DNA from: an uncultured virus (IMG/VR IMGVR_UViG_3300025459_000001)
Taxonomy: Duplodnaviria > Heunggongvirae > Uroviricota > Caudoviricetes
IMG/VR virus record: IMGVR_UViG_3300025459_000001
Direction: 5' to 3' (one strand)
Length of the DNA stretch: 64,000 nt
In this document: positions 1,653 through 63,024 of the stretch, one piece after another
How the letters are laid out: every line of letters starts with the position of its first letter
Position numbering within the stretch: position 1 is the stretch's first letter
Made by a program: the position numbers and the translations under genes
Notes under the pieces: model-generated
Databases searched by the model: none
Told to the model about the DNA's origin: nothing
Seen by the model: the letters and a program-made list of their open reading frames with translations, nothing else

Positions 1653-2006
1653 ATGAAAACCCAGCGTAGGCTGAAGCCACGGCGCGGGCCTCCAGGGATA
1701 CCAGAGCAGGAGTGGAGGAACCCAGCGTACTTGGCGTTTCTTCGTCGTGAAGGACTTTGCATAGCGTGTCTTAAGACCGGGAAAAGACGTGCGGGACTGG
1801 GTTCCTGCGACCCTGCTCACGGTTCCGTAAACGGCATGGGGTCAAAAGGGCCCGACAAAGAGGCCGTCCCTCTGTGTCGCATCCACCACGACGAAATGCA
1901 CCGTATCAATTGGCCCCTGTTCCAGAATTTCTACGAGTTCAACCGTTACGATGTTGCGGCATACTGGTGGGAGAGGTTTAAGTCATGGCAGGAGACTTCG
2001 ACGTAA
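1653..2006 (+). CDS. DUF968/HNHc-like Zn-binding phage nuclease
   Basis: CIAC...DPAH...GMGSK..D..AVPLCRIHHDEMH motif pattern. Confidence 0.7.
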   Translation: MKTQRRLKPRRGPPGIPEQEWRNPAYLAFLRREGLCIACLKTGKRRAGLGSCDPAHGSVNGMGSKGPDKEAVPLCRIHHDEMHRINWPLFQNFYEFNRYDVAAYWWERFKSWQETST

Positions 2007-29886: not shown

Positions 29887-30555
29887 TCACTCCAGTGGCG
29901 GCAGGTCTTCGTGCTCAAATCGTTCAATCTGTTGTTTGGACCACTCCGGGTCATACAGATGACGGAAGGGGTGCTCCCAAAACGCATCATGGTTTAAAGC
30001 CACGGCGGGGTTGTCGATCAGATTCCAGAATTTCCACCCCCGCTTGCTCGCCCGAAACGCGACGCTTTGATTGTCGCAAGCCCATTTCTGGTCCATGCGC
30101 TCATCGAACCCGCCGATGTCCTTCAATGCCTTCAGTGGTGCCGCTGCCCAATCGGCCTCCCAGTTCATCCAATGCGGTTCACCGCGATTTTCAGATCTCC
30201 ACTCTTTGACTAAGGGTGTCTTGTAGAACATCTTCCCGTTCATCTCCCAATACCCAGGAGCCTTCGGGACAGGGGCGGTGAAGAAGTACCCCGACATGGA
30301 TCTGAATGCCTCAACAAACTTCTGAAGTCCGTCGCGCTCAAACCAGAGCCAGTCCTCAGCTACCACCACCAGTTTCCCGCGCGCCCTACGGAGCATCGAG
30401 TTGAATGCGGCGTTGAGCCGATGCTCTTTTCCGCTGTCGATCTCCACCAGCCATTCAAAATCTTGGCACGTCTGATCCTTCAGGGATTGCTCGATGGGCC
30501 GAAGGGCCTGAAGCCCCCTAATTGTGGGGCTGAGAACACTGACCAGAGGCGTCAT
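29887..30555 (-). CDS. glycosyltransferase, GT-A fold (family 2-like)
   Basis: VSVLSPT...SLKDQT..DFEWLV; IGGFDE. Confidence 0.85.
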   Translation of the reverse strand: MTPLVSVLSPTIRGLQALRPIEQSLKDQTCQDFEWLVEIDSGKEHRLNAAFNSMLRRARGKLVVVAEDWLWFERDGLQKFVEAFRSMSGYFFTAPVPKAPGYWEMNGKMFYKTPLVKEWRSENRGEPHWMNWEADWAAAPLKALKDIGGFDERMDQKWACDNQSVAFRASKRGWKFWNLIDNPAVALNHDAFWEHPFRHLYDPEWSKQQIERFEHEDLPPLE

Positions 30556-31016
30556 TAGAAATTACCGTCCGCAACTTGAAAGACCCGTAGGCCACGAGCG
30601 CGGTACATGTCCACTACTTGCTTACGATCCTCAAAGACTCCACCGATTTCAACTCCTCCTGGCCTGTCTTTAATGAGTTGGTCGAGCAACTCCGATTTCA
30701 CAACGGAATCTTCTCGGTGGTCCCCTTGCTTGCGCATGTACAGGCCGCTAAACTGGACATCGTGCTTCACAAGCCATGAAGTAGTCGCGGCCTCCACTTC
30801 GTCGCTTCGCCCCGATATGAGGACTATTCCGTATCCGGCATCCCATAGAATCCTGGCGACTCGGATCACTTCATCTATTGGCTTATCGTTGGGACAAGCC
30901 GCGAAGAAAGCGCGCCAATCTGCCGCGTTTGGTGTGTGGTCTGGCTTGCGAGTGATTAGGTGAAGGCGATGCGATAAATCCGCGAGGGTACCGTCAATGT
31001 CAAATATATAAATCAT
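30555..31016 (-). CDS. HAD phosphatase (T4 polynucleotide kinase 3'-phosphatase-like), stand-alone
   Basis: FDIDGTLA, SGR, K, FEDR..VVDM...GL.V.QV. Confidence 0.9.
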   Translation of the reverse strand: MIYIFDIDGTLADLSHRLHLITRKPDHTPNAADWRAFFAACPNDKPIDEVIRVARILWDAGYGIVLISGRSDEVEAATTSWLVKHDVQFSGLYMRKQGDHREDSVVKSELLDQLIKDRPGGVEIGGVFEDRKQVVDMYRARGLRVFQVADGNF

Positions 31017-33220
31017 CTCAGCCATCCTCCGGGAGGCTTGGCGTGATCCCACTTCTTCTTGAAGATCTCCATGTTCCGGTCGTACCTTCGACGAAACTCT
31101 TCTTGGTCATAATACGAGCGGAAGGTTTGGCCTTGAAGGTGTTGGGCTCTAACGGGTTTAACGGCGATTGTAAACCCGGCGATTCTGGCTCGCGCCAGAA
31201 AATCGTCATCGAGAAATCCGTATCCTCCGTTGAACTCCTCGTCATAAACGTATCCGCCGACAGCCTCGTAGACGTTTCTCGGGATGCACCACAGCGAGGT
31301 TTCCAGCTTCATCTGGCCAGTCAATACGAAGGTCTCAGGTGCCCACGAAGTAACCGTTTCTGGGACTGCCATTGTCTCCAGCCAATCGGGATCTTCGATC
31401 ATAACGTCATTGCACACGATGAAAATAAACTGCCCTTGCGCTTTTTCGAAGGCTAAATTGATGGCGGTGGCCTCTCCTTTCTGATCGGCAACGATGATCT
31501 CGATCCCTTCGGGGGAGTTCTGTTTGATTAACCCAAGGCTTCGGGCCGACATCTCCCTGACTTTACCTTCTGGATCGTAATCCACAAACACTACAGAGTA
31601 CTTCGGTCTGTCGTCCACTGCTACCACCCCTTCCCCACATACTGGGTCAAATCCATACTCGATTGGGTATCGGACAATTGCCTTCAAATGCGCTTCCCTC
31701 AGCCACGAGTCGATCACTTCAGGAGGACAGTGATGGTGCTCACCATATCCCGATGGTGCTATGGAGTCGTCTGGATTCGGATGCCGCGTGTCATTCGGAA
31801 CAGTGAAGACAATCCTGCCACCGGGTTTCAGCAGTTCCTTGAACTTCAAGAGTTGCTTGGGAACCGCGTCCGTGGGAAAGTGCTCCAGAATCTCTGTCGC
31901 GGCCACAACATCGAACGAATGCCGCTGAAACGGTCGGGGGAGGTCGCGGGCGTCTGAAATGATGTCCGCTGCGTTGGGTTTACAAAGGTGCTTGTCGAAC
32001 TCGTACTTGTCAAGATTAACGGCACCGATCTTCCGCATTTCTCCGCCATCGTCGCAACACCCTACATTCAGAATCTTCCCCTGACCCTTAGAGTGCTTGA
32101 GCGCAAAGATGAACTGTGCGCCGGTGTTTTTGTGATCCTCGACACCATACATCCATGTCTCGATGAAGTCGATGTACCGCTCCCAGTTGAAGGTAGATCT
32201 TGCCCACGGCATCATGTCGGCGCGGATCTGCTCTTGCAGTCCCACGTTGGACGCCAGCTTGTAAATCTCCCCAACATACCGGGCCTGCGTTAACGGATCT
32301 TCTGGATCACCAAAGATCCAGATTCCATGAAGGCAATAGTCTCCCGCTGCCCATGTTGGGGAAATGATCGGGATGGCACCCAGCGCCATTTCTTCGATAC
32401 CAGAAATAAACCCCGTTTCCGTAAACAGCGTCGGGTGAGCCGACATCCCACAGGACAATTTCTCCTGGTATAGCCGCTTCTGCCCGATCCTGCCCAGATG
32501 AGTGACCCCCGGTTGTTTCATCTCCCGCATGGCCTCATCGTAAATCAGCTTCCACTGATTGGTCGGCGGGTTCGAGGCGATGATCTTCTCCATGTTGTCG
32601 AACCCGTAGGCAATGACCAATTCAAGGTCATGCACCCACTGACGCGCTTTACGGAAGATCTTCAACAGGGGGAGGAGTCCGCGATCAGGAGAACTGGCAA
32701 AGATGATCTTCCTTGGATTTCTCGTGGGCACGCCTTCGGCCTCGATCTCCCGTATCAAGTCGTTTCGGATGCCATTGAACCCCTGGCACACCTTCTTGGC
32801 GTATTTGGGGTACTCTTTCATCGTGAAACTGGCATGAGTCGGGCAGAGAGCGATAAAGCGGTCTAATTTCTCCCACCGTTCCTCGGTAAGGTGGGGGTAG
32901 AACACATCTTGGCTAACCAATGACAAGACCTGTCCGGGATGCTCAAGGGGGAAATTATCGAGGACCTCTGGGCACCGAGACACGAACCACCATCCAGGCC
33001 GGGTGTAATCGGCCTCAGAAAGGGGTAGCCAGCGCGTCCCTAGCCACTCAGGGGGCGTATCCTGCCGCAGGGGGGCGTAGACCACCACCTCGTGCCCGCG
33101 CCTCGCCAAGCGCCTAGAAACCTCCACAACGGCGGTCTCCGAACCGCCTATTCCGGGGTCCTCAGGGTTGCGCATATCCCAAGGCTCGAAAGTGACGGGG
33201 CTGATGATCGTTACCTGCAT
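31013..33220 (-). CDS. multidomain glycosyltransferase: GT-B (GT4-like) + SAM methyltransferase + GT-A
   Basis: GIGGSETAV, SSPDRGL, ETGFISGIEEMALG; ILNVGC...FDVV..EILEH..LLKPGG; CNDV...YDEEF..GFLDDDF. Confidence 0.85.
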   Translation of the reverse strand: MQVTIISPVTFEPWDMRNPEDPGIGGSETAVVEVSRRLARRGHEVVVYAPLRQDTPPEWLGTRWLPLSEADYTRPGWWFVSRCPEVLDNFPLEHPGQVLSLVSQDVFYPHLTEERWEKLDRFIALCPTHASFTMKEYPKYAKKVCQGFNGIRNDLIREIEAEGVPTRNPRKIIFASSPDRGLLPLLKIFRKARQWVHDLELVIAYGFDNMEKIIASNPPTNQWKLIYDEAMREMKQPGVTHLGRIGQKRLYQEKLSCGMSAHPTLFTETGFISGIEEMALGAIPIISPTWAAGDYCLHGIWIFGDPEDPLTQARYVGEIYKLASNVGLQEQIRADMMPWARSTFNWERYIDFIETWMYGVEDHKNTGAQFIFALKHSKGQGKILNVGCCDDGGEMRKIGAVNLDKYEFDKHLCKPNAADIISDARDLPRPFQRHSFDVVAATEILEHFPTDAVPKQLLKFKELLKPGGRIVFTVPNDTRHPNPDDSIAPSGYGEHHHCPPEVIDSWLREAHLKAIVRYPIEYGFDPVCGEGVVAVDDRPKYSVVFVDYDPEGKVREMSARSLGLIKQNSPEGIEIIVADQKGEATAINLAFEKAQGQFIFIVCNDVMIEDPDWLETMAVPETVTSWAPETFVLTGQMKLETSLWCIPRNVYEAVGGYVYDEEFNGGYGFLDDDFLARARIAGFTIAVKPVRAQHLQGQTFRSYYDQEEFRRRYDRNMEIFKKKWDHAKPPGGWLR

Positions 33221-43033: not shown

Positions 43034-44503
43034 TCAGAAAAGCGTCGAGGCGAGTTTGAAACAGGTCCGGGGGCTTGGCACCATTAGATTTGAGCCGCTA
43101 AGGAACTGGCCGCTCACATCGATCGAGTTGTTCACGCCCTTGAATCCGGTAAACCCGAATTGAAACAGGTCTACCTGGGAGAAGTACCACTCCACGTAGG
43201 CCGTGTTCAATCCGAACATCTTGCCGATCGGCGAGCTACCCGAAGGAAGATACCGCGAAATGACCACATCGGCGGCATTGAACCTGAAGTTCTGGAATCC
43301 CACGTTGGCCAGATCGTTGTCTTTATTCTCATACCGCATTGCAGGCTGCGTGCCCTGCCAGATCAAGTTCCAGCCGTTCTGTGTGACCACTATCAGGTCC
43401 GGGTGATCCGAGCCCCAACAGGCGTTTCCATAGGCCGTGTTGAGTTGTGCCAAGGTGAACGTGGTCACCGTGGCCTGATAGGCATTCAGCCCGCCAACGG
43501 TGCCAGTCGTCAAACCATTGATATCGGTTCGGTTCTGGCCGCCGACTTGGGAGTAATTTGTTCCGTCGTCGATCCACTCATCAAATCCGTTCAGGTATTT
43601 AGCCCGCGCACCCTGCCCGTTCTGGTACATATTGACGGCCAGGATCTTCGCCATCTTCAATGAGGCGTTGAGGAACTTCATCTCTACCTGATTGAAAATC
43701 GCCTCTTGGCCATCGTCGTTCATCGCGTCCCATCCGTATAGCGTGATGTTTACCCACGCTACCTTCAGGTCCACCGTGATCGCCGCGTCGGTCGTAACGA
43801 AGTTGATGTCCATCGTTTCGCCCTTGCCCATAAAATCGCCGAGGAGTTCCCCAACAATCACGGGCCTCCTTACGCGGCTGTTGCCCGCGAATCGTTCTGC
43901 TCTCTGCTGACTGAGCCTAGTAAATGCAGGATCTGCACCGTAGATGATCGTTCGTGTTGCGACCGGGTTCGCTATTCCCGGCCTTCTCACACTTTCATGT
44001 GAGACCAGACCATATCATCACCCCGAAGGGTGCCGCGCGCTTCCGAGCACTTGCCCGTACTCCCCGAAGGGATGGCCGTTGAACGTTCCCATTTCTGGGC
44101 TTCGCTGCTGATTACCCCGAAGGGCTTCCCAGCAATTCACGCGGTTTTCGAGGCGGCTTTCACCGCCAAGGGACTATCAGTTAATCCGTTGTCTTCTCTA
44201 CGATGTAATCGTACACATCCTTGATGTTGCGACCGGGTTCGCTATTCCCGGCCTTCTGCAAGTTTCCCAGCAGAGCAGATCATCTCATCGGCCCGCTTCG
44301 GGTCGCCTCGCGCTTCGGGCCGCTTGGCCCTACTCCCTCTCGGGATGATCGTTGAACCTTCCGACTCTCGTCGGCTTGGCTGCTGATTGCCTTGCCCGCC
44401 AATTCGGGTTTAGGTGTCCCAGCAATTCACGAGGTTTGCATAACCGATCTCTCGGCTAAGGCCCTATGTCTAAGGCGTCCAGCTCCGTTAGCTGCAAGGC
44501 CAT
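43034..44503 (-). CDS. major capsid protein, spliced: join(44473-44503, 44184-44218, 43034-43948), 326 aa
   Basis: RBS AGGAGG (44512-44517). Spliced N-terminus MALQLTELDAYVYDYIVEKTTDIIYGADPAFTRL is in frame. Capsid-like motifs LNGFDEWID, VGGQNR, PDLIV, GFQNFRFN. Lies between scaffold and decoration genes. Confidence 0.85.
43949..44183 (-). ncRNA. group I intron 2 (235 nt, IA2-like, no ORF)
   Basis: P1 GGAU/UA..UAGUCC with U.G at the splice site. P GAATTGCTGGGA, Q AATCAGCAG, R GTTCAACGGCCAT, S GATATGGTC. P3 CCGCG/CGCGG, P7.1/P7.2, terminal G, P10 UGAU/AUCA. Confidence 0.92.
44219..44472 (-). ncRNA. group I intron 1 (254 nt, IA2-like, no ORF)
   Basis: P1 GCCU/UA-GACA-UAGGGC with U.G. P GAATTGCTGGGA, Q AATCAGCAG, R GTTCAACGATCAT, S GAGATGATC. 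P3 CCTCG/CGAGG, terminal G, P10 ACAU/AUGU. Confidence 0.92.
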
Positions 44504-44523
44504 TCTACGTACCTCCTATTTCA

Positions 44524-44552
44524 TTGACATTGAGTAGGGGTTGGCGTACACT
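44524..44552 (+). promoter_or_regulatory. sigma70 promoter for the endonuclease VII-like gene (leaderless)
   Basis: TTGACA-17 nt-TACACT; ATG at 44559. Confidence 0.65.
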
Positions 44553-44558
44553 AAACGT

Positions 44559-45266
44559 ATGGAACAACCCCAGCAAACAAAGATCAGACTGAGTACTCGC
44601 GTGTACAAGGCCTGTCCTCACTGCGGAGAACAACATTCCGCCAGAGAAATATGGCCGCACCGAAAACGGTGCGAGCTTAACCCTAAGAACCTGCCGAAGA
44701 CGATAAAAGAGGCCCCAAAGAAAGGTCCGGGAATGCCTGTGTCTTGCAACTACTGCGGACACAAGACCGTGCAGTTGCTTCTTCAGAGACATTTCGCAAC
44801 CTGCCCGAATATCACGATCCTCGAAGGACAGAAGGTCTGTACTATCTGCCAATCCATCCTGTCGATAGATGACTTTTCGGCTCATTGCAGATCTCCGGGC
44901 GGAAGAAGCAACATCTGCAAGAAGTGCGCCTGCGCGAGATCTACGACTTGGTATCACACGCCGAAGAATCACATGTCCCGTAGAGAACGTATGGAATACA
45001 AACTCTACGGCCTCAGTCCAGAAGGACGAAAGTCCCTTGAGACTGCGCAGAACGGTCTGTGCGCCATTTGCGGTAAGCCGCCCAGCGGAGGACCGAAGAA
45101 CGAGAGGCTGGCCGTCGATCACAATCACAATTTCCCCGGCACTCACCGAGCACTCCTTTGCGAGAAGTGCAATACAGGCCTCGGTGGGTTTTTGGACGAC
45201 CCGGCCTTGCTCGTCAAGGCAATCGCTTACCTTGCGAGTCACCGAAAGATCGCCGCTGTTTCCTAG
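44559..45266 (+). CDS. endonuclease VII-family (homing-type) nuclease with N-terminal Zn fingers
   Basis: YGLS...AQNGLCAICG...LAVDHNH...RALLCEKCNTGLG.F.D...L..AI.YL; several CxxC pairs. Confidence 0.9.
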   Translation: MEQPQQTKIRLSTRVYKACPHCGEQHSAREIWPHRKRCELNPKNLPKTIKEAPKKGPGMPVSCNYCGHKTVQLLLQRHFATCPNITILEGQKVCTICQSILSIDDFSAHCRSPGGRSNICKKCACARSTTWYHTPKNHMSRRERMEYKLYGLSPEGRKSLETAQNGLCAICGKPPSGGPKNERLAVDHNHNFPGTHRALLCEKCNTGLGGFLDDPALLVKAIAYLASHRKIAAVS

Positions 45267-45289: not shown

Positions 45290-46213
45290 CTATACTGCGC
45301 TCCCGCTCATTTCCTTCTCTAACTTCTTCTGGACGTACTGCTGCGAGATGATCCCTTTACCTAAAGGCGCTTCAATGGCGTCGCCTTCCTTGGGCTTCAA
45401 CCGTTCCAGTTGGCGCCGCTGCAAAGGTCCCAGCTTCCTTCCGCCACCGCCGCCGTCCACAATCGTCGGACTGTGCCCGCTCAACGCCGCTGCTTGCTTG
45501 CGGCCCTCCGCAATGCCTTCTTCGCGAGCCGCCTTCTTCTCCGCTTCACGGGTCGCCGTATCGCGTGCTGCGAACTTATCCTTGTAGAAGTCGTTGTAGG
45601 CTTCGTCTGGGTCGATGTTCGCCATCGATGTTTTCTTAGCTTCGGCCAACTTCTTCATGTGCTCGAAGACGGCGGGCGCATCCAAGGCCTCTCCGAAGGT
45701 CTTCTCGTGCGCCCCGAATTTCGGCGTCAATTTCTGGTAGACCTCCTGGAAGCGATTGCCCCAACCGTTGATAGTCGAGTTCAGTTCGGGGCGGATTTCC
45801 TTGTCCCGAAATTCCGTCAGCTTCGAGGTCAGCGTGTTCACATCCACCACGCCCTTCGCGGTCAGCGATTCATCGATCAACTTCTTTACGTCTTCGGCGG
45901 TCATATCAAGTTCTCCACGCGCCCGCAACTTCTCCACCTCTGCGGTGGCTTCGGCTAGTGATGTCCGAACGCGGCTGTGTTCTTGTTCCCACATAGGCCA
46001 ATCTGTTTCCTTGAAGTGCCGCCATTTCTCCAACTCCTCGACTACCGGAGGCAGAGTTTCGTATTGAAGTGCTTTGACCCTGGGAAGTAATGGTTCCACT
46101 TGCTCCCCAAGTTCGGCATATCGTTTCACGGCAGGATACTTCTCGGAGATGGCCTTGAGACTGTTGCGTTCGCCGTCATCGGCGATCGCGGCTAATAGGT
46201 TCTCAAAGGGCAT
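45290..46213 (-). CDS. scaffolding protein
   Basis: Charged, helical, 307 aa, upstream of the capsid gene. Confidence 0.65.
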   Translation of the reverse strand: MPFENLLAAIADDGERNSLKAISEKYPAVKRYAELGEQVEPLLPRVKALQYETLPPVVEELEKWRHFKETDWPMWEQEHSRVRTSLAEATAEVEKLRARGELDMTAEDVKKLIDESLTAKGVVDVNTLTSKLTEFRDKEIRPELNSTINGWGNRFQEVYQKLTPKFGAHEKTFGEALDAPAVFEHMKKLAEAKKTSMANIDPDEAYNDFYKDKFAARDTATREAEKKAAREEGIAEGRKQAAALSGHSPTIVDGGGGGRKLGPLQRRQLERLKPKEGDAIEAPLGKGIISQQYVQKKLEKEMSGSAV

Positions 46214-47645: not shown

Positions 47646-49514
47646 CTATACGGGTGAGCCCTGTCGCTGACTTCTCGTTTGACGCGGCGTTCTTCCTGCA
47701 CCCTTCGGCCCTCCACCAATACCCGCCTCGTGTTCTTTCTGCATTTCCTGTATGACAAGGTCTGCGTTCTCCGGGAATTCCGCTTGCCGATAAAGACCGT
47801 GAAGTGACAGAGCGCCCATCTTGAAATACGTGGCCGCCCTCACCTCCTTCTGCATTCTACTCGTTCCGTGAGTCGATCCAGGAGCGATCTTCATACTGAA
47901 TGCCCGCCAGAAATCCTCCTTCGGTGCCGAGGAAGGAACCATGGTCCCAGCGTCGTAATCGAAGTCTTCCGGCGTCATCCCGTCTGCCCCCAGCACTCTC
48001 ATACGTCCGCTTAAAGTGGCGTACTGGAAGACGTTCGATACCATCTGTGACCCAGCTTCTTCTAATGCGATCTCAAGGTAGCGGCTTTCCAATTGGAATG
48101 GACCGCTCAACGTCTCCCTCATCTGTTCGATGGCTTCACCTCCCGGCACTTGCTTTTTCTTGGCGATGCCGGAGATGTCCAATGATCCAGAACGTTTCTT
48201 GATCGTCTCGACGAGATACCGGAGAAACTCTCCGATGTACGGAGGCAGATTCGGCGGGTCCATGTAGCGGAAGTCACCGGGTTGGGCGATTGGGTTCATC
48301 AGAATTTTTTGCGCCGGTTTAGCGGGTTGGAAGGCATCCCACACCACTTCGGCCATCGCACCACGCTTGCCCACTACGTTCAGGTTCAACGCTCTCTTTA
48401 CGGCTTCCTCTACTCCGGCACCGATGCTATTCGTGGCTTGGCACTGTGGGATCAATCTTCGGTACTTCGAGATTCCACCGGGGCTCCACACGCAGGGATT
48501 CAACTGAAGCATCGTGAAAGGATACAGTCCGTGCCAGAAGGGGCTTGGACCGTCGTACATGATCCGATCCCCGGCGAAAATCACCAGCCTCTTACGCGGG
48601 AATAATCTTGCTCCTGGGGGCACAAGATAGTGGTAATTGTACTGACTGGGATGAAGGTCCTGATTCTGAACGAACACTTCATTGCCAGATTCATTGATCG
48701 ACCAATCGTCGAAATAGACCTCCTTCAACTCGATCACTGGGAACGGTACGTAGGTCCCTTCGGATTCTCGAACTGGACCGCCGCGCTGCGACATCTTGTG
48801 CTTCATGGCGGGACTCATCGCATTCCACGTGTACTCAGGCACGCTAGAAGGTCGAACGTACTTGTCCTGAGAAAGTGACCGGCTCAGGTTGACCGTGTAC
48901 TTTTCCAGCCCTTGGCATTTCTCTTTGCCGAACTTGGCGTAGAAGTACGGGAGTGGTTTGTAGTTCTGATAGATGACCGCTGCCGATTCCTGTATCTTTC
49001 CGTTACAGAGAACCGGAATCACCTGATCGGCCCCGTGCGCTGAAAACTGGAATTGGTTTTCTCCGGCTACGTGCTTCAGGAATCCTGTCCCAAATAGCGC
49101 ATGGTCCAGCCACTCCACCACAATCGCATCCAGGTTCATGTTGAACCACAGCGACCGGATGTACTTGTGAACCGTCTCGGCTTGCTTTTTGTACGCCTCG
49201 ACCGATGACGTGATGTCGATAGTAGGGCGGATCTGACTCAATGACGACAGGGCTTCTAAACGCATATCACCCATGTAATCGTCATAGTACTTTGACCTGT
49301 AGTCTGGACGTGTCGAGGGATACCAGTTGCCGTCCAAGTAGTCCAGGATTCTTTCGATCTCTTGCAGGTCCCGCCAAGAGCGCATTTCCTCCATCCCCTG
49401 GCGGAGAAGGGCGTCGCGCCAACCTAGAAGTTTTCTAGAGTATTGGTCAGGGAAATCGCGCGAGCCAGAATTGCGTTCGACGGATGCGCGAGGAACGATC
49501 GCTAACGAAGCCAT
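47646..49514 (-). CDS. portal protein
   Basis: 622 aa; HALFGTGFLK, YDGPSPFWHGLYPF, SG..DISG; position between terminase and scaffold. Confidence 0.85.
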   Translation of the reverse strand: MASLAIVPRASVERNSGSRDFPDQYSRKLLGWRDALLRQGMEEMRSWRDLQEIERILDYLDGNWYPSTRPDYRSKYYDDYMGDMRLEALSSLSQIRPTIDITSSVEAYKKQAETVHKYIRSLWFNMNLDAIVVEWLDHALFGTGFLKHVAGENQFQFSAHGADQVIPVLCNGKIQESAAVIYQNYKPLPYFYAKFGKEKCQGLEKYTVNLSRSLSQDKYVRPSSVPEYTWNAMSPAMKHKMSQRGGPVRESEGTYVPFPVIELKEVYFDDWSINESGNEVFVQNQDLHPSQYNYHYLVPPGARLFPRKRLVIFAGDRIMYDGPSPFWHGLYPFTMLQLNPCVWSPGGISKYRRLIPQCQATNSIGAGVEEAVKRALNLNVVGKRGAMAEVVWDAFQPAKPAQKILMNPIAQPGDFRYMDPPNLPPYIGEFLRYLVETIKKRSGSLDISGIAKKKQVPGGEAIEQMRETLSGPFQLESRYLEIALEEAGSQMVSNVFQYATLSGRMRVLGADGMTPEDFDYDAGTMVPSSAPKEDFWRAFSMKIAPGSTHGTSRMQKEVRAATYFKMGALSLHGLYRQAEFPENADLVIQEMQKEHEAGIGGGPKGAGRTPRQTRSQRQGSPV

Positions 49515-52881: not shown

Positions 52882-55128
52882 CTACAAGTCCTCAATCCTC
52901 GGTTCATAAGGCTGGCCTTCCGGCTTCTTCCCCATCAACGTCATCAGTCCTTCAAAACCCAACGAGTTGGGCAGTTGGATTTCCAGCGAAATAGCCTTCA
53001 GTTGGATCGAGCCGCATTGCGGACAACGGTATTCTCGTTCCGGGTTATCGCAGACCCACGGCCATTTGCCTTCCGAGTCCACCGTCTCCCCGTACCGGCA
53101 AGTCTGACAGTAACACCGATACCGCGCGGGCTTCTGGACTTCCACTACGCCTGGAACGCGAACGCGGCCTCCTTCGTCACAGTCCATTTCATGGGCGCAG
53201 TAAAGAGAGATGAGACCGGCAAGGAGTTCGTCGTCGTGAAACGTTTCCTCAGCCCCGAAGGTCCGCGAGTCAGCCTCTTCTTTCCGGTAAGTGGTCATTT
53301 CCTCTGCAAAGTTTGCTGACCTAATTACCCAAGTGTGAGACAAGAGCCAGTCCACTCCCGTCTGATGAAGGTACGCCTTCGTATTCACTTTGGTGTACCA
53401 ATGCCATTTCCCGGACAAAGGGTGCAGGGAGTCCAGATGTTTCCACCGGAAGACATTTGGGTACTGATAAAAAATCAGCACATCGTCACCAACAGTCTGA
53501 TAGACGTTGTACTCGATGCACATCAAGGCGTCGTTGTACCACCTTCCAATGACGTTACAGTAGAAGGCCAATTCCTTGGGCTTGGTGTGGTTATCCCTCC
53601 AGACCGCCACTTGCTCATCGGGCTGGCCAAACTTACCGATCTTGTTGACGAAGATCACACTGTAGTCTTGGCCGATTCCTTCGCTCGGGTCCACTCCAAC
53701 TGAGTACTCAACGCCCAGTAGCGGCTCCTCCCAGACCCAAAAAGGGGTCTCGTCTTGGCGATGATCGACATTGCACCCCTTGATGTAACACCGGCCATCT
53801 TCTCCGCCCGCCCCGTGGATTTCGCCGGTTTCCCGATAAATCTTTCCCTTCCTGACTGGATTCCGATCTACGGTCGAATTCACCCACTCGCGGCAGGCAT
53901 CGTTGAACATCACGAAACCACTTACCTGCCAAGCGTCCTCGGCGGTGACGGCCATTTCCTGAAGCCACTGTTTCTTGGCCTTCTCCCCCTGTTCTTCAGC
54001 TTGCTCGCGGTTGTCCTGATGCCAATAGCATTGCTCGTCCGTCAGCACCATCGGTTGCAAGGTTCCCGTGTCACAGTCGGGGCACTTTGCTCCACTGACC
54101 GATTCTCCGAATAACGCGGCTTTGCGCCACTTCCGACAATTCGCGCACGTCAGCCATTCCTTCTTGGCCCGCTCCCGCATCAGTCTCTCTGGTTCTTGAA
54201 TGCACCAACCGTTCGGAGGAGCCAGAACTCTGGTTGTCTCGAAGAAGCTCGGAAGAAACAGTGGATACCAACGTGGCCATTTGCCTTGATCCATACGCCG
54301 CTCACACGCTCTCCAGATTCGATGCGCAGCGGTTCCGGCTCCTTCACCCGTCCCTTCGATGAATCCGAAGACTTGCGGTTTATCAGCCATCGAGTTGCCT
54401 AAATCGGCGTTGACAATGCGCTCTAAGTCGTCCTCAAGGTAGCCACAAAACTCTGAGACGTGGGCCGCGTCTACAGCGATCCCTTGTCCTACTCCAGAGT
54501 ATTGGTTCGACCATTGCACCATTACACGAGAGTTCATGCCAGGATGTCTTAAACGGAGTAGCGGGTCCTCATTCTCGAAGAATAAGCCCGTCTCTTCTTT
54601 ACGGCTGGACTGCATCGGCTTCAACCACCACGGCATGTTGTCGTAGATGTACAGCATATAGCCGAATAAGTAAGAAGAGTGCGCCCGATCAACCGAGACT
54701 ACGATGGCTCTCGTATTTGGAAAGAACATCGCCCGCCAAGCGATCATCGCTTCAATCAAAGTCGAGCAGCCCAATTGGCGAGCTTTCAAAATCAAAATCT
54801 TCTGTGCTCTGCCCTTGGCCTTCAGTTCGTAGTACTTATCGAGAATGATGAACTGGCTTTCCCAGAGTGATAGGAGTTGTCGCTTCAGTTCCTTCGTAGT
54901 GATCCAGAAGTAATTTCTCGCGGCGTAGCTGAAATCGTTTCGGCAGGCACGGGCTTGTTCGACGATGGCCGCTTTGAGCTTCTTCCCGTCAGCCAACCCC
55001 TCAATCAGTTCAAATCTTTCGATAGAGGGGATCAGGTCCCAGTCTTCTTCCCTAATCTTCAGTTTTAAGGGGAGGTCCCGATCCAAGTACTCGATCATGG
55101 CGGATACGCCAGGGTCGCGTCGCCACAT
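52882..55128 (-). CDS. terL: terminase large subunit
   Basis: Walker A ILKARQLGCST, Walker B AAHVSE, FIEGT, nuclease VGVDPSEG...DYS, IEYN, HDDELLA. Confidence 0.92.
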   Translation of the reverse strand: MWRRDPGVSAMIEYLDRDLPLKLKIREEDWDLIPSIERFELIEGLADGKKLKAAIVEQARACRNDFSYAARNYFWITTKELKRQLLSLWESQFIILDKYYELKAKGRAQKILILKARQLGCSTLIEAMIAWRAMFFPNTRAIVVSVDRAHSSYLFGYMLYIYDNMPWWLKPMQSSRKEETGLFFENEDPLLRLRHPGMNSRVMVQWSNQYSGVGQGIAVDAAHVSEFCGYLEDDLERIVNADLGNSMADKPQVFGFIEGTGEGAGTAAHRIWRACERRMDQGKWPRWYPLFLPSFFETTRVLAPPNGWCIQEPERLMRERAKKEWLTCANCRKWRKAALFGESVSGAKCPDCDTGTLQPMVLTDEQCYWHQDNREQAEEQGEKAKKQWLQEMAVTAEDAWQVSGFVMFNDACREWVNSTVDRNPVRKGKIYRETGEIHGAGGEDGRCYIKGCNVDHRQDETPFWVWEEPLLGVEYSVGVDPSEGIGQDYSVIFVNKIGKFGQPDEQVAVWRDNHTKPKELAFYCNVIGRWYNDALMCIEYNVYQTVGDDVLIFYQYPNVFRWKHLDSLHPLSGKWHWYTKVNTKAYLHQTGVDWLLSHTWVIRSANFAEEMTTYRKEEADSRTFGAEETFHDDELLAGLISLYCAHEMDCDEGGRVRVPGVVEVQKPARYRCYCQTCRYGETVDSEGKWPWVCDNPEREYRCPQCGSIQLKAISLEIQLPNSLGFEGLMTLMGKKPEGQPYEPRIEDL

Positions 55129-60310: not shown

Positions 60311-61129
60311 TCATCCCAACACCCCTACCTTCCCATCGCCTTCATACTTTAAGATGATCTCGTCTTCACTGATTTCCTTGACCACCACATTTGTTTCCAG
60401 TTGTACCCTGCCCGACTTCCCTACGACTTTAAGAGCGGCAATCATCCCCGGTTTTGCTGACCACTGCCACGCTGCCTTCGGCCCCTCCATCAACTTCACA
60501 ACTTCGGCTTCGTCAACCACGTCGTTGGTCAAGTAGTCCTGAATTTGGCGCAAAATCATGGCTTTGGTGGGCCGATCGTCGGGCTCCTCGCGTTCGCGGG
60601 CCGTCACTCCCCTAGTCGAGGCTTCCCGCTTGGCCTTCCGTTCCGCCACTTTCTTTTTCTTGGCTTGCTTGGTTTCGCCTCTTCGAATCTCGCCGACCAA
60701 CGATAAGGAGACGCCAATGTACTTGGCGATCTGGGTGTCTTTCCACTCCCCAATCTTCTCGTCGGTTACCGCCAATTCAACGGCGCGTCTTTTGTCGGCA
60801 TTGGTCAGCCGTGCGCCGTGATGGGAGTTTTCCAATAGGGCGTACTTCAGTGCATCGGAGGCGTCCCCATCGTGTATGACGGCGGGGATTTCCAGCTTGT
60901 TTTCCTGCCGGTAGGCTTCGATGCGATGGAAGCCGTCCGCGACACGGTAGGAGTTGTCTCCGTTACGGAAGATATGAATGGGGTCCATATTCCCGTGCTC
61001 CTGAATTAAGGAGCGGTACTGATGGACCAATCTGGCGTCGAGGGTGATGCGAATTTGGACGGAATTAGTTTCGTCAATTTGCTCGATGGGAACCAGCTTA
61101 ACGGTTTTCTTGGTGGCAGAGGGTGTCAT
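60311..61129 (-). CDS. ParB-like protein (ParBc domain + HTH)
   Basis: VQIR...DPIHIF...VADGFHRIEAY; ENSHHG..LT.ADKRRA; HTH KDTQIAKYIGVSLSLVGEIR. Confidence 0.8.
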   Translation of the reverse strand: MTPSATKKTVKLVPIEQIDETNSVQIRITLDARLVHQYRSLIQEHGNMDPIHIFRNGDNSYRVADGFHRIEAYRQENKLEIPAVIHDGDASDALKYALLENSHHGARLTNADKRRAVELAVTDEKIGEWKDTQIAKYIGVSLSLVGEIRRGETKQAKKKKVAERKAKREASTRGVTAREREEPDDRPTKAMILRQIQDYLTNDVVDEAEVVKLMEGPKAAWQWSAKPGMIAALKVVGKSGRVQLETNVVVKEISEDEIILKYEGDGKVGVLG

Positions 61130-61917: not shown

Positions 61918-63024
61918 TCAACTTGTAGCCCGCTGTTCTGAGGGGCATAGCCCCGCAAGGCTCATCCCGAGCCTTTTGATGTTTAGTGCCGCGTTGTGAT
62001 CCCGCCCCAAAGTCAACCCGCATGAACAGGAATGCACCCGCTCGCTAAGTTCCTTTCGGATGATGACACCACAGCCGCTGCACTTCTGAGATGTCCCCTT
62101 CGGGTTGACCGGCACCATCCACTTACCAGCGTATTCTGCTTTGTAAGTTACCTGCCAGATCAACAGCCCCCAGGCTGCATCCATGATTGACTTTGCTAAC
62201 TTGGATCGCACCATATTTCGGATCTTCAGATCCTCGTGAGCAATTAAATCGTAGTTCGCTACCAGCCACTTGCTGACGTGGTGGATGTAGTTCAACCGCG
62301 CACTTGCGGCCCGTTGATGAGCGCGGCGCAACGCCTCACGCGCACGGAGGCGGTTATGTGACCCGCGCGTCTTGGTTGCTAACGAGCGATTGGCGGAGGC
62401 GATCCGATTTTCGTGCTGACGTATCCAACGCGGATTCTCAATCTCGGTTCCGTCACTCAGTGTCGCCAGGGTAGTCAGGCCAACATCAATCCCTACCGGG
62501 TGCATTACCACGCACTTCTCTGGGGCGGGGCCGATATCACAGACTACGTTAGCCGTCCATCTCTTGCCATCACGCTTTACCGTGCAGTATTTTGCGCGGC
62601 CCCAAATAGGACGCCCACCACGCGCCCGAATATCCCCCACGTTCGGTATTTTGATCGAACGCTCGCGGACTACGGGCAAACTGAACCCGAAGGAATCGTA
62701 CCTGAAACGTGAACGATAACGCGGGAACCCCGGCTTCTCGCCAGCCTTGCAACGGCGGTAGAACGCCTTGAATGCCCGGTCAACCCGACGCAACGGGTCA
62801 CGCTGGATATCACAGGCGATCCACTGGAATGCCAGGTCTTTGCGGAGTTCCGTCAACTCCTTCTGCTGGTCATAGTACGTGATCGACTTGTGCTGGAGTT
62901 TCCATGCCTCTTTTCGCTCCTGAATACAGGCGTTCGCAGTCTCGCAGTTATCCTCAAGAATCCGATTCAACTCCGCAACCTGCGTAGCGTTTGGACGAAG
63001 ACGAAACTGAAAGGTTCTCAGCAT
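61918..63024 (-). CDS. tnpB: TnpB (solo, IS1341-like, no tnpA)
   Basis: FRLRP, KPGFPRYR, GIDVG, IAHEDL, TSQKCSGCG, CSCG, RDHNAALNI. Confidence 0.95.
   Translation of the reverse strand: MLRTFQFRLRPNATQVAELNRILEDNCETANACIQERKEAWKLQHKSITYYDQQKELTELRKDLAFQWIACDIQRDPLRRVDRAFKAFYRRCKAGEKPGFPRYRSRFRYDSFGFSLPVVRERSIKIPNVGDIRARGGRPIWGRAKYCTVKRDGKRWTANVVCDIGPAPEKCVVMHPVGIDVGLTTLATLSDGTEIENPRWIRQHENRIASANRSLATKTRGSHNRLRAREALRRAHQRAASARLNYIHHVSKWLVANYDLIAHEDLKIRNMVRSKLAKSIMDAAWGLLIWQVTYKAEYAGKWMVPVNPKGTSQKCSGCGVIIRKELSERVHSCSCGLTLGRDHNAALNIKRLGMSLAGLCPSEQRATS

Follow-up and report, generated by a model that had tools for sequence, protein, structure and literature searches.

The window analysed here is a stretch of 64,000 nucleotides (nt) of DNA from an uncultured virus of the class Caudoviricetes (IMG/VR record IMGVR_UViG_3300025459_000001), and our subject is its major capsid gene on the minus strand, which is interrupted by two short group I introns on either side of a 35-nt micro-exon. 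The virus record holding the window comprises 65,989 bases and is 85% complete by the collection's estimate; contigs of relatives are about 100 kb long. By direct reading of the sequence, a ribosome-binding site, AGGAGG, was found at 44517-44512 on the minus strand, and the start codon ATG (44503) follows it at a distance of 8 nt. Exon 1 (31 nt, 44473-44503) and intron 1 (254 nt, 44219-44472, after coding nt 31) are followed by exon 2, the micro-exon (35 nt, 44184-44218), by intron 2 (235 nt, 43949-44183, after coding nt 66) and by exon 3 (915 nt including the stop codon, 43034-43948), which encodes the bulk of the protein, with a predicted HK97-type fold. Both introns lack an open reading frame (ORF) of their own. 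The limits of exon 1 were drawn from the sequence, the alignment to the Rfam model RF00028, exon joining and an RNA contig, and those of exon 2 from exon joining and a 35-nt piece in the same spliced RNA contig. Intron 1 is supported by RF00028, the RNA contig and covariation, intron 2 by RF00028, the RNA contig and a site shared with relatives, and the content of exon 3 by PHROG, AlphaFold2 and a fold search. The last 6 nt of exon 1 form the 5' strand of helix P1 of intron 1.

Joining the three exons (31 + 35 + 915 nt) gave a protein of 326 residues, in frame. Through scripted translation, we found that unspliced RNA meets a stop at codon 16, that removal of intron 1 alone leads to a stop directly after codon 22, and that joining exon 1 to exon 3, with exon 2 skipped, causes a frameshift and a stop after 20 residues. 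Each intron carries an in-frame stop, so that the splicing of both is obligatory for any capsid protein to be produced. An earlier reading, made from the sequence alone (the sequence-only reading), had given the same exon sizes, intron coordinates, ribosome-binding site and in-frame joining, all of which hold on the minus strand. It had also stated, correctly, that unspliced RNA gives no capsid protein, that skipping of exon 2 shifts the frame, and that the listed ORFs miss the true start. The window's capsid protein is recorded in the protein collection with 275 amino acids (aa), starting 51 residues too late (43034-43990, minus strand; P0002, P0003).

Splicing of the Capsid Transcript

Parts of the window are contained in five metatranscriptome runs, and the contigs of four of them were examined. 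Run X1 holds one contig of 357 nt (depth 9.3) that aligned without mismatches to 43786-43948, 44184-44218 and 44473-44560. The contig lacks precisely the 235 and 254 nt in between, and its joins, 44473 to 44218 and 44184 to 43948, are free of positional ambiguity and are the two junctions predicted from the sequence. The agreement with the window's exons and 5' leader extends over 286 nt with zero mismatches. No contig on either intron was found in the four RNA runs, whereas the joining contig bridges both, and no exon-2-skipped RNA was seen among the few RNA contigs available; these runs cover the capsid gene only in patches, and the uncovered parts are uninformative. Of the 357 nt of the X1 contig, 286 lie on the examined stretch, and the contig was flagged as running past the stretch end. 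Upstream of the start codon, the capsid message therefore seems to continue for at least some 57 nt and probably for some 128 nt, running antisense to the first part of a nuclease gene described below.

The homologues were compared at their N-termini. A search with the exon 3 protein (304 aa) returned 239 proteins at E values up to 1e-3. Among the 120 homologue clusters listed, 89 have the same N-terminal pattern as the peptide predicted from exons 1 and 2, 24 start further in (some perhaps at contig ends), and seven (P0004, P0012, P0018, P0037, P0039, P0072 and P0088) have false N-termini, that is, unrelated extensions resembling translated intron 3' ends, as the mechanically called ORF of the window has. 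The intron-less viral contigs L008-L010, with a capsid protein 89% identical to that of the window, encode the predicted N-terminus unbroken, as the sequence-only reading had expected of such homologues. Over the first 31 residues, a GTG start and a single conservative substitution are all that distinguish L009 from the predicted peptide, and 96-97 of the first 126 coding nt of these contigs are identical to the spliced window.

These results leave us nearly certain that both introns are real and are spliced at the positions given above. What tells against this is that the RNA evidence consists of one assembled contig from one run, which gives no strand, abundance or unspliced share. The introns presumably self-splice without the help of a protein.

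Identity of the Capsid Protein

The protein matched PHROG 9953, annotated as 'major head protein', at E 6e-17. We modelled the exon 3 protein with AlphaFold2 from an alignment of 41 sequences and obtained a mean predicted local distance difference test (pLDDT) score of 81. In a fold search of this model with Foldseek, the best PDB matches were phage capsid proteins, including that of SU10, at E 4e-11 and a template-modelling (TM) score of about 0.6. The terminase gene (52882-55128) and the portal gene (47646-49514) lie upstream of the capsid gene on the same strand. Two results speak against the assignment: the Pfam family SU10_MCP reached only 13.9 bits, short of its cut-off, and the capsid alignment, used as a profile against PDB sequences, gave no match at E values up to 1. 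Taken together with the modelled structure, the assignment of the gene as a major capsid gene encoding an HK97-type fold is well supported.

Intron Class and Secondary Structure

RF00028, which has a gathering score of 50, matched intron 1 with 51.8 bits, narrowly above that score (E 2.9e-10, 44482-44256, minus strand), and intron 2 with 82.2 bits (E 2.3e-19, 44193-43986, minus strand). No further match to this model was found in the window or in the 65,989-base record. In the Rfam alignment, the U.G pair of P1 sits at the last exon base of both 5' splice sites.

For a test of the structure, ten related introns were aligned, namely the two of the window and eight from relatives. Helices P1, P2, P3, P4, P5, P6, P6a, P7 (the pseudoknot), P7.1, P7.2, P8, P9 and P9.1 were drawn from intron 2, and since the structure was derived from one of the aligned sequences, the test is somewhat favourable to itself. 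Standard pairs were found in 92.9% of 687 cells, 43 of 69 pairs had changed on both sides, and none of 500 shuffles attained any of five measures; a control in which the 3' partners were slid by 1-3 columns reached a pairing of only 32-44%. By helix, the paired cells amounted to 98.6% in P3, 95% in P4, 100% in P7 and 98% in P8. P7.1 (95%) and P7.2 (100%) both covary, and P9 is poorly aligned, with 69% paired. The splice-site U.G is invariant (10/10), and a G ends all ten aligned introns, as we also read directly at the 3' ends of the window's two. In P1, the three pairs on the exon side change in step with the internal guide, and each intron is therefore fitted to its own exon. The pairs of P3 and P7 by which the two window introns differ are among the covarying ones. 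Thus the group I identity, the U.G sites and terminal Gs, the exon-matched guides and the compensatory changes in P3 and P7, all noticed from the window's letters, were borne out by the covariance model and across the ten introns.

From the presence of P7.1 and P7.2, the introns fit class IA, and the subgroup may be IA2, as the sequence-only reading suggested, or IA1 or IA3. The introns of the T4 genes td, nrdB and nrdD and other phage introns of IA type offer a comparison. Like these, the window introns are small, have an in-frame stop just inside the 5' end, possess P7.1 and P7.2 and keep the splice-site U.G (PMC3984707). They differ in the class of host gene and in that the first intron of the window lies only 31 nt from the start codon. 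The window introns are too short for a nuclease gene, and only chance ORFs of 40-66 codons overlap them.

The two introns had been called twins, a description that did not survive the comparison. They are 72% identical to each other, within the range of 66-78% covered by all pairs in the family, and by their sequences they are members of one family and not recent copies of one another. A recent duplication or gene conversion between them was ruled out by the 72% overall identity. Near the 3' end, the two share an identical run of 33 nt; runs between introns of different genomes reach 40 nt. The core sequence of the window introns is 71-75% like that of introns in phage DNA polymerase and terminase genes.

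Distribution of the Intron Family in Related Phages

Relatives were sought in two scans of viral contigs (24 and 80 loci) and one of metagenome contigs (80 loci); introns were scored by RF00028 together with a sequence profile of the intron family, and splice sites were read by eye. One family of ORF-less introns was found at six sites of the capsid coding sequence, with 12 introns in 11 lineages. The sites lie after nt 27 (L017), nt 31 (window intron 1 and L033), nt 42 (L041), nt 57 (L025), nt 66 (window intron 2, L011-13, L082, L039 and L122) and nt 155 (L040 and L121). All six are within the first 155 nt of the 981-nt coding sequence, and none was found elsewhere in the gene. Among the 11 intron-bearing lineages, two introns in one capsid gene occur only in that of the window, where all six distinct DNA contigs (L003-L007 and L027) carry both. 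The insert of L033 scored 142 bits by the family profile, had no match to RF00028 at E values up to 0.01 and was counted as a probable intron. The L017 intron at nt 27 shares its guide hexamer with window intron 2 at nt 66, and both upstream exons end in GGAT.

Some of these relatives showed further peculiarities. The capsid gene of L041 has an insertion of about 790 nt (L041:1353-2147) near residue 277 of the full protein, and that of L058 (= L134) one of about 734 nt (L058:1866-2601) near residue 92. Neither insertion matched RF00028 (E up to 0.01) or the intron profile, and they may be introns of another type or inserted nuclease genes. At the codon aligned with the capsid start, L025 has ACG (L025:2695-2697) behind a good ribosome-binding site, which may reflect an unusual start codon, a variant or a mistake in assembly. 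In L017, six tRNA genes are clustered about 1.8 kb downstream of the capsid gene (L017:5698-6745).

The Neighbouring Nuclease Gene

A free-standing gene for a 241-aa protein with an endonuclease VII motif lies at 44541-45266 on the plus strand, as assigned by Pfam, PHROG and the motif in its translation. Its start is 38 nt from the capsid start codon, on the opposite strand. Pfam Endonuclease_7 matched residues 154-232, at the C-terminus (E 4.4e-18), and PHROG endonuclease VII families matched at up to E 2.8e-30. The pattern CxxC...DHxH...R...CxxC-N is present in the translation of the window gene and in its homologues of 12 other loci, and the catalytic domain is preceded by an N-terminal extension of 150 residues with several CxxC pairs. 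According to PMC6083498, the pattern CX2-4C...DHxH...R...CX2C...N defines the F-CphI family, whose catalytic domain is C-terminal. Its sequence makes the product of 44541-45266 a candidate for an F-CphI-type (DHHRN) homing endonuclease.

The nuclease gene is inserted between the capsid gene and a conserved upstream late gene of 307 aa (45290-46213, minus strand), which had no Pfam or PHROG match and is scaffold-like by position only. Using tblastn, we found that in L008-L010 the 307-aa gene ends 49 nt before the capsid start, leaving no room for a nuclease gene. Between lineages whose capsid proteins are 57-88% identical, the nucleases share 28-65% identity. The closest to that of the window is the one of L011, with 65% over 241 residues, and the two nucleases of lineages with an intron at site 155 are each other's best match. 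An ORF of about 48 codons, absent from the window, lies between the nuclease and capsid genes in L121 (1958-2102) and L038 (24-165), on the minus strand; in L121 its stop overlaps the nuclease start.

Association between Introns and Nuclease Gene

Lineages were taken as 95% nt clusters, and the 66 in which 1000 nt or more precede the capsid gene were scored. The nuclease gene was adjacent in 8/8 intron-bearing lineages (the window, L011, L017, L025, L040, L082, L121 and L122) and in 2/58 intron-less ones (Fisher p 8e-9), and with capsid identity restricted to at least 50%, the counts were 8/8 and 2/20 (p 1.4e-5), although the scored lineages share ancestry and these p-values overstate their independence. 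In L025 and L121, adjacency was assigned by hand, because the distance rule took the intron as its reference point instead of the start codon. L137 and L148, with short endonuclease VII-like genes about 1.8 kb upstream, were not counted as adjacent.

We also compared L121, which has the intron at nt 155, with L038, which has none there. Of the 155 coding positions before the site, 32 differ between them, against 36 of the 760 that follow, with five of the differences clustered in the 25 nt just past the site, and blastn identity changes from 74% to 94.5% across it. Homing in which one flank is co-converted would leave a recombination boundary of this kind at an intron insertion site; the pattern does not indicate which element caused it. 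Around the lineage of the window, no near-identical pair with and without the nuclease and intron unit was found among L007, L008, L011 and L032. Their DNA identity is 69-82%, apart from L032 and L008, which are 99% identical and both lack the nuclease gene and the introns. No recent gain or loss can be read in the lineage of the window.

Besides the shared ancestry, several points weigh against reading these results as a joint spread of introns and nuclease. The nuclease gene occurs without an intron in the L014 and L019 groups and in L062 (with 818 nt upstream only), and it is therefore tolerated without one. The intron-bearing contigs L033, L039 and L041 were too short upstream and were left out of the count. 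The break at nt 155 concerns relatives and not the lineage of the window, and the L038 contig ends before the nuclease position. In addition, the nucleases of site-66 lineages form no clean group, and the second-best match of the window's nuclease, after L011, is a nuclease of a site-155 lineage.

Other Genes in the Window

Near the end of the window, an ORF at 61918-63024 (minus strand) matched a transposase family (PHROG 506, E 8.6e-92) and adjoins a ParB-like gene at 60311-61129. A polynucleotide kinase-like gene was found at 30555-31052 (minus strand; PHROG 415, E 1.7e-43), and a small ORF at 1653-2006 (plus strand) had a weak HNH endonuclease match (PHROG 96, E 2.8e-6). The majority of the remaining large ORFs, three with more than 1300 codons among them, had no match to a PHROG family.

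Discussion

Our results show that a phage capsid gene is assembled from three exons by two obligatory splicing events. Group I splicing begins by attack of a free guanosine nucleotide bound in P7. The sequence-only reading had the production of capsid protein gated by two GTP-dependent events; of this, the obligatory splicing stands, the dependence on guanosine follows from knowledge of the intron family, and nothing in the analysis supports a use of splicing to regulate capsid output.

The sequence-only reading also placed phage group I introns mostly in other genes, and this framing of novelty was too strong. The mycobacteriophage LittleE has an 819-bp group I intron in its capsid gene, with splicing demonstrated by reverse transcription PCR and N-terminal sequencing, and the lactococcal phage Tuc2009, as cited in the same paper, has an intron in a capsid subunit gene (PMC3706429). 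What these phages share with that of the window is an intron of the self-splicing type in a capsid gene, with efficient splicing in late expression demonstrated for LittleE. LittleE has a single intron with its own endonuclease ORF on the bottom strand, whereas the window has two short ORF-less introns and an external nuclease gene. Landthaler and Shub reportedly described, in 1999, three group I introns and exon skipping in orf142 of phage Twort. That gene and the one studied here both contain several group I introns and an internal exon that can be skipped, but in the window a transcript without the 35-nt exon would be out of frame. Metatranscriptomes have also confirmed numerous small ORF-less introns in phage genomes (PMC12880540). 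In the literature searched, which lay largely outside the subscription journals, we found no description of this phage group, no two introns flanking a capsid micro-exon and no pairing of an F-CphI-type nuclease with introns in a capsid gene. Introns in capsid genes, phage genes with more than one intron and collaborative homing have all been published; what is new is the multi-site intron series, its co-occurrence with a nuclease gene and the divergence break in one pair of relatives.

F-CphI is a free-standing homing endonuclease encoded beside the intron-containing psbA gene of cyanophage S-PM2 (PMC6083498). The enzyme cleaves psbA copies that lack the intron, and the presence of the intron prevents cleavage; this arrangement is known as collaborative homing (PMC6083498; PMC3984707), and the review describes only two such systems (PMC3984707). 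The locus of the window resembles that of S-PM2 in having an adjacent free-standing nuclease gene with an endonuclease VII motif and a C-terminal catalytic domain, the gene being optional among relatives. It differs in its host gene, the major capsid gene, in its two introns 35 nt apart, and in the six sites used across relatives; cutting by the nuclease, its target and protection by the introns are, for the window, only predicted.

The internal guide of each intron pairs with the end of the upstream exon (P1, with U.G) and with the start of the next exon (P10). Both introns are excised from the late transcript, and the exons are ligated into the frame of the 326-residue capsid protein. We propose that the introns most likely persist and spread jointly with the divergent upstream nuclease gene, by collaborative (trans) homing. 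The nuclease would cut intron-less capsid alleles near the intron sites, repair would copy the nuclease gene and the introns into the cut allele, and the introns would interrupt the nuclease target and in this way shield their own genome. As a whole, this explanation of obligatory double splicing and joint spread is in our judgement probable. Its homing part, in which the activity of the nuclease, its target and the protection by introns are inferred, we favour by a little over an even chance. Support for the homing part is indirect and comes from the co-occurrence of intron and nuclease gene and from the L121/L038 break at nt 155.

An unlikely but still credible explanation is that the introns and the nuclease gene are independent selfish elements sharing a neighbourhood. 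The nuclease would then spread by intron-less homing, cutting in the scaffold-capsid junction, and the introns would have come by reverse splicing into short guide-complementary sites or would ride co-conversion tracts, protecting nothing. Such a history would be in keeping with one intron family at six sites, each guide matched to its own exon, with the nuclease genes of the L014 and L019 groups that stand without introns, and with the guide hexamer shared by the L017 and window introns at nt 27 and nt 66, as reverse splicing into a look-alike site would give. Reverse splicing of this kind is discussed as unproven in PMC3984707, and homing nuclease genes have been reported as clustered near essential genes including that of the capsid (PMC10448857). 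The ratio of 8/8 to 2/58, however, is stronger than a mere shared neighbourhood predicts. The position of all six sites near the nuclease end fits linkage to a cut site, and it also fits short-range hitch-hiking by co-conversion.

It is very unlikely that the endonuclease VII-like gene encodes a Holliday-junction resolvase that the phage itself needs for DNA packaging, as gene 49 does in T4, and that has no connection with the introns. In favour of this, the catalytic domain is an endonuclease VII domain, and the terminase and portal genes are neighbours in the module for head and packaging functions. Against it, the gene is optional at this position, since 56 of 58 intron-less lineages lack it beside the capsid gene; it is inverted relative to the late operon, and it diverges to 28-65% identity among lineages with capsid proteins at 57-88%. 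It also has a 150-residue N-terminal extension with several CxxC pairs, and its catalytic domain is C-terminal as in F-CphI and unlike that of T4 endonuclease VII (PMC6083498). Finally, that the spliced-looking RNA contig is carry-over of DNA, which RNA libraries can contain, from an intron-less variant of the phage is hardly credible, given its mismatch-free 286 nt of exons and leader, the presence of both introns in all six DNA contigs of the lineage, the 29-30 differences of the nearest intron-less relatives in the first 126 coding nt, and the lack of intron contigs in the four RNA runs beside a contig that bridges both introns.

The locus matters in several ways. Automatic gene callers shorten the capsid protein (275 instead of 326 aa), and hidden introns of this kind distort surveys that use capsid proteins, which are common phage markers. 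Translation and intron folding are known to conflict. A ribosome on unspliced RNA would cross the guide of intron 1 before it reached the stop at codon 16, and translation must therefore compete with the first splicing step near the start codon; with a splice site 31 nt from the start, intron 1 is a sharp test case for this conflict. The locus is also a natural series for testing how introns and nucleases come to act together, since one family of introns occupies six sites, the nuclease gene is present or absent, and close relatives lack introns.

A bolder and quite tentative view is that the first 155 nt of the capsid gene may be a standing battleground, in which diverged F-CphI-type nucleases, encoded upstream, would cut the 5' end of the gene at different positions, and small ORF-less introns of one family would have been recruited repeatedly, at six sites or more, as 'armour' that disrupts the target of each nuclease. 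The two introns of the window, 35 nt apart, may then reflect resistance to, or riding with, two nuclease specificities. If this is true, the number and position of introns would record the pressure that nucleases exert on an essential structural gene, and these phages would provide the first multi-site, multi-lineage natural series on how collaborative homing begins.

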